Positions 611 through 55,751 of a DNA stretch of 64,000 nucleotides are shown in pieces. The DNA is taken from NCBI GenBank assembly GCA_963718575.1, contig OY970358.1, positions 578,172 to 642,171 on the forward strand, in the 5' to 3' direction. The position numbers were made by a program, and so were the translations under genes. Source of the DNA: an uncultured bacterium (GTDB taxonomy: Bacteria > Patescibacteriota > Minisyncoccia > UBA6257 > 2-01-FULL-56-20). The notes below the pieces were generated by a model. It made no database searches. It worked only from the letters and a program-made list of their open reading frames with translations, and was not told the DNA's origin. The number at the start of each line of letters is the position of its first letter. The first letter of the stretch is position 1.

Positions 611-759
611 GCTTTTTTATTTTTTTTCTGGCGACGGGCCTTAATAGCGTTTTGAGACCACTCCTTCATTTTCCCGCTTTCCTGGCGAGCCTTCACGGAC
701 GCAACTCCTCCGCGCCGCCCCATTTCCCTCATAACCTTACTGATCGTCTTTTTGTCCAT
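607..759 (-). CDS. Small basic protein of 50 aa, translationally coupled to the serine recombinase through an ATGA overlap. Possible accessory or directionality factor.
   Basis: Read directly from the sequence: MDKKTISKVMREMGRRGGVASVKARQESGKMKEWSQNAIKARRQKKNKKA. Its stop overlaps the recombinase start. Confidence 0.3.
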   Translation of the reverse strand: MDKKTISKVMREMGRRGGVASVKARQESGKMKEWSQNAIKARRQKKNKKA

Positions 760-1307
760 ATCTTTATTCTAACCGCTTAGTTATCTTATAGCAAATGGCC
801 TATTTCGGCATGCTATCGAAGTAGCGATTGAGGATTCTTTCGAGGATGGGATCAAGTGTATCGCGTAACTCAAGAAGCTCTTGATCGGAGAGTTCGTTTT
901 CACTGTCTATTTTTCTTAATTGTTCAAGAGATAACACAAAAGGCCGCCCTTTGGCGGGTGGAGATAATAAAAATGACCTTTATTCCACTCGCTGAGGACG
1001 GCCCAATGCCTTTCAGCTAATAAAAACTAGCTATTGAATTAATTTAATTTTACGCTTTTCGCGGCGGTTGTCAACTAAGCCGATTAGAGGTATCTTGATG
1101 ATAACAACTGAATATAAGTCGCCTAAACCTTTGAGCAATCAAGGCATGGCGCAAAACTCCCTTCGCAGATACCAAACTCCACGTTCGGCTATTCTGCGAA
1201 GGGTCATATCTCGAAAGGGATATGGGCATCGCAAGATGCCAGCCAGCGTGGAGTTTTGTGCTAAATAGGCCGATCCACGCTCCAGTAAAAATAAAATAAT
1301 TTTCAAA

Positions 1308-1841
1308 ATGAACTTAACATCAATCTTAACTTTACTTCAACTGGTACTCGCTCTGTTGAGCAATCCTACGACAGCGAATAATCCTCAAATACAGACATTA
1401 GCGCAGTCTGCAGTTTCAGACGCAGCGCAAGCGATTGCGCAACAACAGACACCGACTCAGGTTTCAAATTCAGCGACGGCGGTGGCAACGACCACATCAA
1501 GCCCCACCTCAACACCGACAGTTTATAACCCACAAGTTCCGATAGGCAACCATGAAATTGTTGGGGCCACATCCACGCCAATCACAGCTCCATATCTTAC
1601 CTATGGCGGATTGGATTATGCCGACACGACATCGGACATGACGATTATAAATGAACTGAATCAAGATAACATAATTTGCGTGATGCATTATCAGACAAGC
1701 AACGGACAGCTAGAACAAAACACGGTGGTTACCAATTATTACGGAGTAAATGGCTTGGAGCCGAACGGACAGCTGGAAGATTGTTTGCAACAAGAGGATG
1801 AGCTACAGGGCGAGTTGATCCCGTTTGTAAATAATCTATAA
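1308..1841 (+). CDS. Secreted hypothetical protein with an N-terminal signal peptide.
   Basis: ORF track. Hydrophobic N-terminus followed by a Thr/Ser/Gln-rich low-complexity region. Confidence 0.45.
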   Translation: MNLTSILTLLQLVLALLSNPTTANNPQIQTLAQSAVSDAAQAIAQQQTPTQVSNSATAVATTTSSPTSTPTVYNPQVPIGNHEIVGATSTPITAPYLTYGGLDYADTTSDMTIINELNQDNIICVMHYQTSNGQLEQNTVVTNYYGVNGLEPNGQLEDCLQQEDELQGELIPFVNNL

Positions 1842-1842
1842 A

Positions 1843-2684
1843 ATGCATAGCCTTGAAAACAAAGAAATTCCGAGCGAGATTAGGGGTTGGAACTGGGGCG
1901 CATTTTTCCTGTCTTGGATTTGGGGTCTCGGCAACAATACCTATATCGCCCTCCTAGCGTTAATACCAATCGTCAATCTCGTTTTTATTTTTATCCTTGG
2001 AGCGAAGGGCAACGAGTGGGCATGGAAAAATAAAAACTGGAAAAGTGTCGAGGATTTTAAGGACGCTCAGCGCAAATGGCGCAACGCTGGATGGATTGTG
2101 TGGGGAATATCCATCTTGATTGTTCTGGCTGTAATAATCGGCGCGGCTTCTGAACGGCCCAGAATAATTCTCCGGCGGCATATCAGCCACCGCAGCAGAC
2201 AACTCAATCCGTGCCGCAAGCACCACAAACAGAAACTCCGCAACAGTTCTTTGGGGGTACATCAAATCAACCACAATCTTCGCAAGGTGCGTCAAACGAG
2301 GGTGCAACGCTCCAACAATCATCAGAAGACGGTCCTACCGCCCCGCCTTGGCCAACATCATACAACGCAACGATCGTGGAATCATATTCTTCGGGTGTCT
2401 ATAACGCCAATTACTACGTTACGTTTGATAATAAAACTTACGTTGCAAATTCTACCCAATACGTTCTTGCTGGCTTTGAAAAATATCCAATCAGCGATAT
2501 TCATCCATGGGGAGAGGTGTATATGTCGTTTTCTTGTGCGGATCAATATGAAGCAAACTACGCAGTAACCGATGCTTCTTCCGTCTATCCCTACAATACT
2601 CCGTGGATGCAAGGCGGTATCAATGGTATCGACTTATCGAATAATGAGCCAAACGAAGTTTCCTTTACTTGTGTTCAAAATTGA
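1843..2684 (+). pseudogene. Membrane-anchored secreted protein split by an apparent single-nucleotide frameshift near 2150-2155.
   Basis: The frame of ORF 1843 has a membrane N-terminus (GWNWGAFFLSWIWG...ILIVLAVIIGAAS), then degenerates into Arg/His-rich nonsense. The frame of ORF 2211 opens at 2154 as a Q/P/T-rich linker (TAQNNSPAAYQPPQQTTQSVPQAPQ...) followed by a globular C-terminal domain. Confidence 0.4.
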
Positions 2685-6392: not shown

Positions 6393-6614
6393 ATGGCATT
6401 AAGTTCCGAAGACAAAATCATCAAAGAGGGAGAAACTGAAAAGCAGGGATTTTCGGTTACTTTTACGAACGGCACACTTGCACAGCTTGAAGAATTGAAA
6501 GAGTTTTTTAAGAAAGCCGATAAGCTCGATGTAATAAAGTTAGCCATCTCGATTTTGCAAAATGCGAAGGAAGCGCAAGAGAAAAAACCTGCGCCGACAA
6601 CGCCGCCAAAATGA
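6393..6614 (+). CDS. Small hypothetical protein inside the element, divergent from the transposase.
   Basis: ORF track. A TATAAT-like hexamer lies at about 6378-6383. Confidence 0.35.
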   Translation: MALSSEDKIIKEGETEKQGFSVTFTNGTLAQLEELKEFFKKADKLDVIKLAISILQNAKEAQEKKPAPTTPPK

Positions 6615-6615
6615 T

Positions 6616-6900
6616 ATGGCAGATCATCTCGAACATGAACAGCTTGGAGATAGAATATCGGGTAGTTTGTCCGATGATGTCTTTGAGGGCTTACAGCATG
6701 AAAAGAGCCGACTACACATCACAAAAATCGTAGAGGAATATACTAAGCACGAGGATTTTATAGAGAGAGTGAGAAAATACGCTGGACAAGAAATGGACTC
6801 GCGCCTTTTTATAAGTTCAAAGTTTTGGCTAACAACGATATTAGCCGCCTTGGTTTCAGGATTGATCGGCGGTTGGCTCGTTCACATTTTCGGACATTAG
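6616..6900 (+). CDS. Hypothetical protein with a C-terminal transmembrane helix. Its stop codon lies inside IR-R.
   Basis: In-frame ATG (MADHLEHEQ) 2 nt after the stop of the previous ORF. The listed ORF start at 6562 is an upstream over-extension. Confidence 0.35.
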   Translation: MADHLEHEQLGDRISGSLSDDVFEGLQHEKSRLHITKIVEEYTKHEDFIERVRKYAGQEMDSRLFISSKFWLTTILAALVSGLIGGWLVHIFGH

Positions 6901-19644: not shown

Positions 19645-19962
19645 TCAATCGCCCGGTACGGATTGTAACGGAGGGGTCTCCGCGCCGCCCTTTTTATTTT
19701 TAAGGATTCTGATGGAGCGGCATGCCGGAGAGGTACATTCCTGCACCGTGGCGAGGGTGTCTCGATGACAACATGGACAGGTGGTTAAGATGGTGTGAGC
19801 GATCAGAAGGTCGAGCTTGGTCAGAAGGTTTCTCAAACGGCGGATAACTCCGACCATCAATCCGATAACCATTAATACCAATACAAACATGACGGCATGG
19901 TATTGCGGGAAATACCAAAGCCATCCGTCAGATTTCAGATTCACGAGATGTAGGAAGTTCAT
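19645..19962 (-). CDS. Small membrane protein with a CPCCH motif.
   Basis: Strong Shine-Dalgarno sequence AAAGGAGG 5 nt upstream of the ATG. Hydrophobic core. Confidence 0.4.
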   Translation of the reverse strand: MNFLHLVNLKSDGWLWYFPQYHAVMFVLVLMVIGLMVGVIRRLRNLLTKLDLLIAHTILTTCPCCHRDTLATVQECTSPACRSIRILKNKKGGAETPPLQSVPGD

Positions 19963-20021: not shown

Positions 20022-20474
20022 TTACCCCTCTCCGCCGCGAATTTCGCGTTGGTGCGTCCGTTTCTTGATCGCCTCGCGCTTGTCGGATTTCTTGCGGGTG
20101 CGGCCGAGGCCGAGCTCAAGTTTTATCAAGCCATGTTTGAGGTATGCGCGGAGCGGAATAACATGGAGCGATTTATCAATGAGCGCGCCCTGCAATTCTT
20201 TAATTTCATCTTTTGATAATAAGAGCCGGCGCACACGATCCTCTTCATAATCGGCGGGCGTGTTGCCCGCCTGGTATGCCGGGATGTGCGAGTTGACGAG
20301 CCACGCCTCGCCGCCGCGAATGAGCACGTGTGCGCCGGCAATCTGAAGCCGGCCGCCCTTCGCGCTTTTCACTTCATAGCCTTTAAACTCGATCCCCGCC
20401 TCGTATTTTTGCGAGATCTCGTAGTCAAAGCCCGCCCGGCGATTTTCCGCTATCGTGTCCGCTCGTTTATCCAT
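20022..20474 (-). CDS. smpB: SsrA-binding protein SmpB.
   Basis: IAENRRAGFDYEI...GIEFKGYEVKS...HIPAY...RRLLL is the canonical SmpB pattern. Confidence 0.85.
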   Translation of the reverse strand: MDKRADTIAENRRAGFDYEISQKYEAGIEFKGYEVKSAKGGRLQIAGAHVLIRGGEAWLVNSHIPAYQAGNTPADYEEDRVRRLLLSKDEIKELQGALIDKSLHVIPLRAYLKHGLIKLELGLGRTRKKSDKREAIKKRTHQREIRGGEG

Positions 20475-32546: not shown

Positions 32547-32630
32547 TGCTGGAGAGGGGAGTCGAACCCCTATGATCTTGCGATCGCTGGCACCTGAAGC
32601 CAGTGCGTCTGCCAATTCCGCCACCCCAGC
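32547..32630 (-). tRNA. tRNA-Leu (anticodon CAG) with a long variable arm.
   Basis: Minus-strand sequence GCTGGGGTGGCGGAATTGGCAGACGCACTGGCTTCAGGTGCCAGC...AGGGGTTCGACTCCCCTCTCCAGCA. Acceptor, anticodon and T arms fold correctly. CCA is not encoded. Confidence 0.8.
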
Positions 32631-47337: not shown

Positions 47338-47418
47338 GCCCAGGTGGTGAAATGGCATACACGTCAGCTTTAGGAGCTGATGCCGAAAGGCGTGGAGGTT
47401 CAAGTCCTCTCCTGGGCA
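47338..47418 (+). tRNA. tRNA-Leu (anticodon TAG) with a long variable arm.
   Basis: GCCCAGG...TCAGC TTTAGGA GCTGA...TGCCGAAAGGCGT...GGAGGTTCAAGTCCTCT CCTGGGC A. Confidence 0.75.
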
Positions 47419-47438
47419 CACTTTACAACGATATTTCT

Positions 47439-55231: not shown

Positions 55232-55277
55232 ATATCCTGATGATAAGGCGCAATAAGAAAATAGTCCATTTCTAAGC

Positions 55278-55406
55278 CTGCCTTACATGAGGGCACGTTC
55301 CTTTTGAAAGGACGGCGTTCCGGTCTGCTGACCGGCCGCCTTGGCTCTCAGCGCCTTCGCGCTTCCGAGACACCTTTCAAAAGGAACGTGCCCTCATGCA
55401 AGGCAG
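55278..55406. repeat. Large imperfect palindrome. The 34-bp arms differ by one mismatch and flank a 61-nt spacer that contains its own palindrome, CCGGTC-TGCT-GACCGG.
   Basis: The arm ctgccttacatgagggcacgttccttttgaaagg at 55278-55311 pairs with cctttcaaaaggaacgtgccctcatgcaaggcag at 55373-55406. Confidence 0.75.
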
Positions 55407-55443
55407 AATAGCGCAAGAACTATTTTCTTATTACTTAAGTGAT

Positions 55444-55521
55444 TAAAAAAACACAAAAGACCTATTGCTAGGTCTTTTGTGTTTGATCCAACACAGCGCT
55501 GGAACCCGGCTTACCATCCGT
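55444..55521 (-). ncRNA. Candidate small RNA of about 75 nt, bounded by a promoter and an intrinsic terminator.
   Basis: On the minus strand, a TTGACG-16-TATATT promoter is followed by CGGAUGGUAAGCCGGGUUCCAGCGCUG...(stem ACACAAAAGACCU / AGGUCUUUUGUGU)UUUUUUU. Confidence 0.3.
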
Positions 55522-55527
55522 GATTTC

Positions 55528-55555
55528 AATATAGCAGGAATAAAATAATCGTCAA
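55528..55555 (-). promoter_or_regulatory. Sigma70-like promoter TTGACG-16-TATATT on the minus strand.
   Basis: Reverse complement of 55550-55555 is TTGACG. Reverse complement of 55528-55533 is TATATT. Confidence 0.4.
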
Positions 55556-55751
55556 ATATCTTTTAATAAAAATTTAATATTTCTTTAGGGCGGTGGAAGT
55601 GAGGGGTGTCGAGCCCCTTGGATCTGGATGGTAAGCCGGGTCCAGCAACCGTGCCACCCCCACCACGGAGCGAGATTAGCATATAGTGCATTAAATTTAG
55701 GTAAAGTTTTTGTGGGTAATATGGAACGATAAATGATGTTCGAATAAAGTT

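Follow-up and report, generated by a model that had tools for sequence, protein, structure and literature searches.

The 64,000-nt stretch of DNA examined here (hereafter the window) belongs to contig OY970358.1 (positions 578,172 to 642,171 of the forward strand) of an uncultured bacterium of the Patescibacteriota. A 557-nt intergenic region between two of its minus-strand genes contains a candidate module, all features of which lie on the minus strand. The module is comprised of two adjacent genes, the first specifying a tRNA-like RNA (mini-tmRNA) that corresponds to the tRNA-like domain (TLD) of transfer-messenger RNA (tmRNA), and the second a small RNA (sRNA) whose 5′ end is complementary to it. 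On balance, we favour the reading that this is a TLD-only paralogue of tmRNA that is kept in check by an antisense sRNA devoted to it and co-evolving with it. The combination of a TLD-only tmRNA with a co-evolving sRNA that pairs with it appears to be undescribed; no description was found in the literature. The features are listed in Table 1.

Table 1. Positions of the features of the module in the window
Feature	Position	Strand	Description
Mini-tmRNA promoter-like region	55678..55705	-	Putative, read from the sequence; TTTACC (55705-55700), 16-nt spacer, TATGCT (55683-55678)
5′ leader	55662..55666	-	GUGGU; complementary to A73-C-C-G/A-C (55589-55594)
Mini-tmRNA	55591..55661	-	TLD-only tmRNA homologue; Rfam RF00023, 11.3 bits, E 0.005
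Arm 1	55626..55646	-	GCUGGACCCGGCUUACCAUCC; 3′ side of mini D stem, P2 5′ strand, loop, first two bases of the 3′ strand
T arm	55602..55618	-	AGGGG-CUCGACA-CCCCU; plus-strand hairpin GGGG-TGTCGAG-CCCC at 55603-55617
sRNA promoter	55528..55555	-	TTGACG (55555-55550), 16-nt spacer, TATATT (55533-55528); 10/12 consensus, TG before the -10 element
sRNA	55445..55521	-	About 77 nt; region A, short linker, region B, terminator
Arm 2 (region A)	55498..55519	-	GGAUGGUAAGCCGGGUUCCAGC (preceded by C); very 5′ end of the sRNA; one bulged U relative to arm 1
Region B	55485..55491	-	UUGGAUC (conserved segment RUGUUGGAY); complementary to GAUCCAA (55624-55618)
Intrinsic terminator	55449..55484	-	16-bp stem, 4-nt loop, run of seven U reaching 55445

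A TLD-only tmRNA and its neighbouring small RNA

The comparative evidence comes from an alignment of 18 distinct sequences of Paceibacteria (candidate phyla radiation, CPR), the window included, whose RodZ-like proteins are 62-100% identical to that of the window. Twenty-nine relatives were collected via the RodZ-like protein, and additional copies of the module were obtained by a metagenome pattern scan and by further RodZ-anchored look-ups. The pattern scan was too permissive, as most of its 120 hits were canonical tmRNAs.

Alignment to the Rfam tmRNA model (RF00023) establishes the first gene as a homologue of the tmRNA TLD. In relatives, the alignment spans model positions 1-374 with 308 positions skipped (L010, 40.1 bits, E 1.2e-12; L011, 34.3 bits, E 3.2e-10; L014, 32.9 bits, E 1.3e-09) and comprises the 5′ acceptor strand with the D-loop analogue (GGGAGUGGCACGGUUGC), a short P2 helix, the T arm (GGGGUUCGACUCCCC), the 3′ acceptor strand, and ACCA. 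No copy reaches the Rfam gathering threshold for tmRNA (47 bits; 11.3 bits in the window and 32.9-40.1 bits in these relatives), and ARAGORN called no tmRNA for the mini-tmRNA genes; standard annotation would therefore miss them. When folded alone, the mini-tmRNAs of relatives adopt a predicted cloverleaf with a 7-bp acceptor, a 3-bp mini D stem, a 5-bp T stem, and a P2 arm of 7-8 bp. Compared with standard tmRNA, the mini-tmRNA shares the G3.U70 acceptor and the presence of an encoded SmpB, and in relatives also A73-CCA, a GG-bearing D-loop analogue, and a T arm with a loop of the UUCGAnU type, whereas the mRNA-like domain with its resume codon, tag open reading frame (ORF) and stop codon, and the pseudoknots, together accounting for the 308 model positions, are not present and are replaced by a hypervariable loop of 8-12 nt. 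A leader complementary to the CCA end is a further difference.

In the window, the acceptor stem (GGGGGUG/CACUUCC, 7 bp) contains G3.U70, the identity pair for alanine, and is accompanied by the D-loop analogue GCACGGUU, a P2-like hairpin, and the T arm. G3.U70 is found in 17 of the 18 sequences, the exception being L183 (A3-U70). A73 occurs in every member and is followed by an encoded CCA in all relatives and by CCG in the window. The acceptor stem is 99.2% paired across the alignment, with three covarying pairs (4:69, 5:68, 6:67); the T stem is invariant in all 18 sequences, and the P2 hairpin has four covarying pairs. The T arm (GGGG-UUCGACU-CCCC) and D-loop analogue (GGCACGGUUGC) of relatives align to the tmRNA model, and full-length tmRNA genes from other contigs (tags ending ..FAA) have exactly this T arm and acceptor sequence. 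The initial annotation had remarked on a T-arm-like hairpin here, read on the plus strand, which proves to be a genuine T arm of the minus strand. Its suggestion of a tRNA-fragment-derived repeat was right as to the tRNA-type origin, but the element is a complete tmRNA TLD and neither a fragment nor, with its 21-mer occurring just once in the window, a dispersed repeat. The window copy is the most deviant member of the family, with its low score, its CUCGACA loop (positions 54 and 60 altered relative to UUCGACU), its CCG end, and two C.A mismatches in P2. The tRNA-Leu genes of the window, at 47338-47419 (plus strand) and 32547-32630 (minus strand), have no encoded 3′ CCA, which implies that the cell must add it, so that a CCG end need not be fatal.

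The leader is GTGGT in 15 of 16 tabulated sequences (GTGGC in L020) and GTGGT or GTGGC in four more. It would lengthen the acceptor stem to a closed 12-bp helix in the primary transcript. The complementarity between leader and CCA end is not present in five canonical tmRNA genes from other contigs. Upstream, the promoter-like region lies inside an AT-rich block, TTTTAnnnAAnTTTAAT, which is conserved upstream of G1 in relatives. A plus-strand acceptor-like stem with an ACCA tail was also considered and was rejected as a mirror-image artefact of the leader/CCA stem, with a z-score of only -1.1.

With regard to the second gene, the initial annotation had proposed a promoter-to-terminator small RNA of about 75 nt, with TTGACG-16-TATATT on the minus strand some 7 nt upstream of GGAUGGUAAGCCGGGUUCCAGC, and a terminator with a 13-bp stem and seven U. 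The promoter is present as described and the terminated small RNA is supported; its length is estimated here at about 77 nt, and the terminator has the seven U on a stem of 16 pairs instead of 13. A/T-rich blocks (ATTAAA..ATTAAA) extend upstream of the promoter up to about 55580. Across the 18 sequences, TTGAC and the T-A-n-n-n-T of the -10 element are invariant, while the 16-17-nt spacer and the discriminator vary, and a promoter scan called the equivalent promoter in L010 and L183. In the terminator, 98.3% of the stem is paired and four pairs covary, and the sRNA is conserved in the 17 other distinct sequences. As judged from these features, the sRNA is a gene with its own strong sigma-70-type promoter and terminator that is conserved among relatives, and the two genes are probably transcribed independently. 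No conserved ORF was found in the sRNA when its frames were checked by eye across the sequences; all frames of the L010 sRNA are free of stop codons, and the positions of stops differ between the window, L014, and L041. An internal sRNA hairpin (UCCAGC/GUUGGA) that could use the same bases as region B was rejected; it is 94.7% paired, with zero compensatory change. The conserved 13-mer of the sRNA has no other targets in the window.

Covariation between the two RNAs

It was already reported in the initial annotation that the core of the sRNA recurs on the plus strand at 55626-55646, and that the two copies are complementary save for a 1-nt bulge. Both statements hold, as GGATGGTAAGCCGGGTCCAGC is found at that position and all 21 arm pairs of the window are Watson-Crick. 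The inverted repeat comprises 16 perfect bases (55504-55519 / 55626-55641) and extends to 21/22 nt with one bulge. The plus-strand 21-mer has a single occurrence in the window, with 0 matches in 100 shuffles, and the objection that it might be a common genomic repeat thus found no support in the window.

The repeat greatly exceeds what chance would produce, since its two arms are conserved across the 18 related sequences and covary. Between arm 1 and region A, 95.5% of 375 cells are paired, and 13 of the 21 pairs show compensatory double changes, in 61 cells. When the strands were slid by 1-3 columns, pairing was 25-45%, and none of 500 shuffles reached the observed covariation score. Region B and the 3′ strand of P2 are 98.4% paired, with compensatory changes in three of seven pairs (12 cells), as against 2-54% in slid controls. 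G.U pairs occupy 15 cells of the duplex versus 6 for A.C; this excess, together with the T arm, G3.U70, the promoters, and the terminator, fixes the transcribed strand. A sense/antisense pair, as had been suggested, is half correct, in so far as the RNAs are complementary, but both come from the minus strand, as products of adjacent genes, and the partner is a tmRNA-derived tRNA-like RNA and not a transcript of the opposite strand of one DNA segment.

The heterodimer is predicted to be more stable than the separate folds by 28 kcal/mol in the window and by 17-23.5 kcal/mol in relatives. A Duplexfold cross-matrix gave means of -53.9 kcal/mol for cognate and -39.2 kcal/mol for non-cognate combinations, to which little weight is given, since large loops were allowed. 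The window and its closest relative, L096, differ by two fully compensated double substitutions, and the duplex stays perfect. It was kept while, over the interval that separates the two, the P2 hairpin and the T loop of the window degraded, which suggests that in this genome the inter-RNA duplex is more constrained than likeness to tRNA. In general, the sRNA follows a hypervariable arm by compensatory change, and this argues that selection acts on the RNA-RNA interaction. The covariation of the pairings establishes that they are selected at the RNA level, and the two RNAs presumably pair in vivo.

The whole intergenic region is identical in four independent assemblies. On one side it is bordered by an 88-amino-acid ORF with its own terminator, downstream of ftsK, and on the other by a RodZ-like HTH_25 gene followed by recA; in all 18 sequences, ftsK (in some cases with one additional small gene) lies on one side of the unit and rodZ-recA on the other. 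The block 55446-55705 is 70-79% identical in several relatives, directly upstream of rodZ, and because of this conservation both repeat arms, the AT-rich spacer, and the terminator are taken as one minus-strand unit. Matches of viral contigs to the T-arm pattern were ordinary tmRNA 3′ ends, and phage genomes showed no similarity to the module.

Proposed function and competing explanations

The window encodes SmpB (smpB, 20022-20474, minus strand; PF01668, 150.2 bits), which is complete and has a basic C-terminal tail. In the phage DS6A, ssrA is little more than a TLD, and a similar TLD-like molecule is reported to be a strong inhibitor of tmRNA regardless of whether it can be charged, with titration of SmpB as a possible cause (PMC4131195). 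By analogy with this inhibition, and given the smpB of the window, the mini-tmRNA may be read as a decoy that binds SmpB, with the sRNA as a dedicated antagonist of it. We infer every functional consequence of the module from sequence. In the mechanism proposed, mini-tmRNA left free would titrate SmpB as a decoy and dampen trans-translation. Its P2 loop would be contacted by the single-stranded 5′ tail of the sRNA, which would then invade the P2 5′ strand and the mini D stem to form 21 bp, and region B (7 nt) could capture the displaced 3′ strand of P2. The tRNA-like body would unfold and leave the acceptor/T minihelix alone, or the 21-bp duplex would be cut by RNase III. The sRNA might thereby neutralise the mini-tmRNA in that SmpB binding or ribosome entry is blocked or an RNase III substrate is made.

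A more far-reaching version, possible but doubtful at present, is an all-RNA control of ribosome rescue, in which a tmRNA-derived decoy shuts down trans-translation via SmpB and the antisense sRNA holds the decoy unfolded. This would be a toxin-antitoxin-like or stress-switch pair made up of two non-coding RNAs, with a tRNA mimic as the "toxin". The tmRNA-SmpB system is the main bacterial ribosome-rescue system, and to our knowledge no endogenous RNA regulator of it is made from tmRNA itself. TLD-only tmRNAs have so far been curiosities, known from a single phage, from certain organelles, and from a handful of database entries; in the present lineage of ultra-small CPR bacteria, such a paralogue is maintained together with an sRNA that tracks it. 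If the decoy and anti-decoy roles are true, the module would represent a new regulation of translation quality control and a new RNA-only antagonistic pair.

Several known systems share parts of this arrangement. TLD-only or CDS-less (lacking a coding sequence) tmRNAs, namely those of the mycobacteriophage DS6A, jakobid mitochondria, and Mallomonadaceae plastids, also contain little beyond the TLD (PMC4131195, PMC11915505). CDS-less tmRNAs are listed as rare, with only 9 "standard, no CDS" sequences, 3 of them instances in Patescibacteria (PMC11915505), and the Patescibacteria entry "9FT-COMBO-53-11 sp001772805" of the 2025 tmRNA database is of the TLD-only or CDS-less kind. None has been described with a partner RNA, whereas here a co-evolving sRNA is linked to the TLD in a chromosomal, vertically inherited locus. 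The two-piece permuted tmRNAs of alpha- and beta-proteobacteria and cyanobacteria are likewise formed by two base-paired RNA pieces from neighbouring genes on one strand (PMC11915505). In contrast to them, the present RNA is unpermuted, with both acceptor strands in one 71-nt piece in standard order, the second piece has its own promoter and no tag ORF, and the joining helix consists of the P2 loop and 5′ strand instead of acceptor stem and P2. Of the two-piece tmRNA models (RF01849-51, RF04321), RF04321 gave just 12 bits, over a partial match.

With type I and type VIII toxin-antitoxin systems and CreT, the module would share, by analogy, a potentially growth-inhibiting RNA that sequesters a translation factor and is encoded beside a counteracting RNA, as well as a pair-specific, fast-evolving complementarity and a patchy distribution (CreTA: PMC8501985, a distant analogy). 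The presumed target here is SmpB instead of a tRNA, and any toxicity is assumed by analogy with TLD inhibition in E. coli (PMC4131195). Unlike in CreTA, the antidote would be direct RNA-RNA pairing instead of Cascade, and the locus is fixed instead of mobile. The proposed invasion also has antisense precedents. In CopA/CopT and RNAI/RNAII, a single-stranded 5′ tail or loop makes the contact, which is followed by strand invasion of the target hairpin. Loop contact and hairpin invasion would be common to these pairs and the module, in which the target is tRNA-like and the sRNA has its two complementary segments in "parallel" order relative to it.

A number of observations weigh against a TLD-only paralogue controlled by its sRNA. 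The "parallel" order in which regions A and B would bind the P2 arm is incompatible with a simple continuous duplex, and the covariation of region B could arise by transitivity from other pairings. No terminator lies between the two genes, so that read-through could make the pairing intramolecular. The mini-tmRNA promoter is weak: the consensus scan did not call it, and its -10 element shifts in position from one relative to another. Because the leader is able to close off the CCA end, the mature mini-tmRNA may not be chargeable, while the deviant T loop, the CCG, and the P2 mismatches of the window copy suggest that its tRNA-like function may be decaying. Canonical ssrA was not found in the window, beside smpB, or in 97 kb of relatives' loci, these being the sequences scanned. 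Finally, the module is missing from several close relatives, which implies that it is dispensable.

The most serious competitor, unlikely though we consider it, takes the module as a single structured precursor of about 230 nt, transcribed from the TLD promoter as far as the terminator. In this case the 21-bp helix would be a processing stalk, as in rRNA and permuted pre-tmRNA, from which RNase III, P or Z would free the tRNA-like RNA by cleavage, and the internal promoter would be secondary. Such a precursor agrees with the placement of both parts on one strand with a terminator-free gap between them, with the folding of a 241-nt stretch with the long helix (z = -7.3), and with the pairing of the leader GUGGU with the CCA end in the manner of a processing stem. 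It is harder to reconcile with an internal promoter of classic pattern, in which the hexamers are invariant and the spacer is free, or with two loci (L022 and L024) that have the genes in the opposite order, with a terminator between them; in addition, stalk cleavage inside arm 1 would destroy the tRNA-like body, and L107 has an intact TLD and no sRNA. A different role for the TLD, as an alanine carrier, seems quite improbable. In that case, an anticodon-less G3.U70 RNA would be charged by alanyl-tRNA synthetase, which requires the acceptor helix only, and would supply alanine to a non-ribosomal process, for example peptidoglycan cross-bridges or lipid aminoacylation, with the sRNA tuning its availability. 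The conserved G3.U70, A73, and encoded CCA, and the location between the cell-division gene ftsK and the cell-shape gene rodZ, would fit this idea, but the sequence affinity is to tmRNA and not to tRNA-Ala, L183 has A3-U70, and the CCA end can be sealed by the leader; no transferase of the Fem or MprF type turned up, none having been sought.

Explanations without an RNA function for the repeat are very improbable. The arms might form an inverted repeat acting at the DNA level (a recombinase site, a cruciform, or the ends of a small mobile element), or a decaying ssrA pseudogene might lie beside an unrelated sRNA, as the degraded TLD copy of the window, the loss of the module in some relatives, the remnant in L013, and the integrase that abuts the TLD in L107 could suggest. 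These ideas are disfavoured in that the arms covary instead of being conserved, G.U outnumbers A.C in the duplex (15 vs 6), G3.U70 is kept, the 21-mer is unique in the window, and the ftsK-rodZ position is fixed in all genomes. The chance of a new two-piece tmRNA, in which the sRNA is the mRNA-like piece docked on the TLD and the 21-bp helix replaces P2, is slighter still. The helix is indeed located where P2 leaves the TLD, smpB is present, and tags down to 2 amino acids are known (PMC11915505). On the other hand, the sRNA has no conserved frame, being stop-free in L010 and variable in its stop positions elsewhere, the pseudoknots are missing, the strand polarity of the helix is unlike that of P2, and standard tmRNA is present in most Patescibacteria (5252 in 6765 genomes; PMC11915505). 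The 6S-like RNA that the initial annotation had also offered would agree with a long helix around a poorly structured AT-rich centre, but can be set aside as refuted: there is no Rfam 6S match at E<=10, the "centre" is a promoter plus a T arm, the 5′ part is a tmRNA TLD, and the architecture is that of a cloverleaf with a separate sRNA. Besides, a resemblance of ACCCGGCUUA to the CR-V/P4 region of RNase P was considered and dropped, as the strand order is wrong and there is no Rfam hit.

Distribution, variant loci and neighbouring elements

The module is not present in several relatives, some of them close (L009, L012, L015-17, L178, and L186), and L013 contains a decayed remnant of it. In two more distant relatives, L022 (3050-3451) and L024 (3060-3453), the ftsK-rodZ locus contains a promoter, a homologous sRNA, a terminator, and then a tRNA-like gene. 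The latter folds as a cloverleaf with G3.U70, a 7-nt "anticodon" loop, and no encoded CCA, and is called Ser-tga and Gly-acc, respectively, by ARAGORN. The sRNA can pair through two segments with the D/anticodon-arm region, with weak pair statistics and shuffling z-scores that are given little weight. The swapped order, with the sRNA terminator between the genes and the complementarity kept, supports action in trans. An alanine-accepting tRNA with a Ser or Gly anticodon would mistranslate, and these loci may therefore be a related "tRNA mimic plus anti-mimic" pair. If the all-RNA control of ribosome rescue were true, they would point to a wider, unrecognised CPR class of such gene pairs.

The intact mini-tmRNA of L107 (~1780-1850, minus strand) is followed directly after its CCA by the starts of a large serine recombinase gene (646-1842, plus strand; PF07508, E 7e-13) and a small HTH gene. 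It looks like a mobile element integrated in the 3′ end of the mini-tmRNA, as with tRNA and tmRNA genes. TLD-only genes with the same T arm and acceptor, and without a complementary partner nearby, were also observed in L048 (~170-290), L061, L092 (~390-470), and L143. They occur in tRNA clusters on unrelated contigs, several of them abutting ordinary tRNA genes in AT-rich, phage-like contexts, and may be compared with the ssrA of DS6A. As for the tRNA genes of the window itself, the T arm of tRNA-Leu(CAG), AGGGGUUCGACUCCCCU, is the same as that of the mini-tmRNA family, and the canonical tmRNA genes and the mini-tmRNA genes of relatives do encode CCA, unlike the tRNA-Leu genes.

Directly downstream of smpB in the window is a gene for a predicted membrane protein of 105 amino acids (19645-19962, minus strand), with a CxxC...C motif and a good ribosome-binding site. 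In L054, the contig with the most similar SmpB, ssrA occupies the slot downstream of smpB, and in the window there is no tmRNA there. Loci of canonical tmRNAs have no synteny with the window apart from smpB. The only non-tRNA Rfam hit in the window is a LOOT RNA (RF03000; 1120-1240, plus strand, 92.2 bits), a structured RNA to which no function is assigned.

On the rodZ side, a promoter of the form TGGACT-17-TA(T/G)(C/A)AT is found at 55240-55268 of the window and in most RodZ loci, 7-8 nt before the ATG. rodZ has no Shine-Dalgarno sequence, and its mRNA appears leaderless or near-leaderless. A T-box leader or riboswitch for rodZ was considered for the module and rejected, since rodZ has its own promoter and a long-hairpin insertion separates the module from rodZ in the window. 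This hairpin is near-perfect, about 180 nt long (55252-55432, minus-strand orientation), and has a minimum free energy of -121.7 kcal/mol; its outer stem pairs with the -35 region of rodZ. The apex is a conserved three-way-junction core, GGUGUCUCGGA-[GCGCGAAGGCGC]-UGAGAGCC-AAGG-[CGGCCGGUCAGCAGACCGGAACGCCG]-UCC, and the lower stem of 35-45 bp varies in sequence between genomes with its pairing kept. The element gave no Rfam hit; it may represent either a mobile element of palindromic type or a structured RNA not yet described. It is also found in L008 (3295-3488), L118 (840-1038), and L175 (1275-1475), and at a different locus in L014 (~6620-6860; equal to L124) and L011 (~6440-6680). In L185 (920-1040), a long perfect palindrome of unrelated sequence, GTCGTAGTGTCGCGGTATGCAGATTTTAAGG...CCTTAAAATCCGCATACCGCGACACTACGAC, lies just downstream of ftsK, and long hairpin elements seem to be common in the intergenic regions of these genomes.

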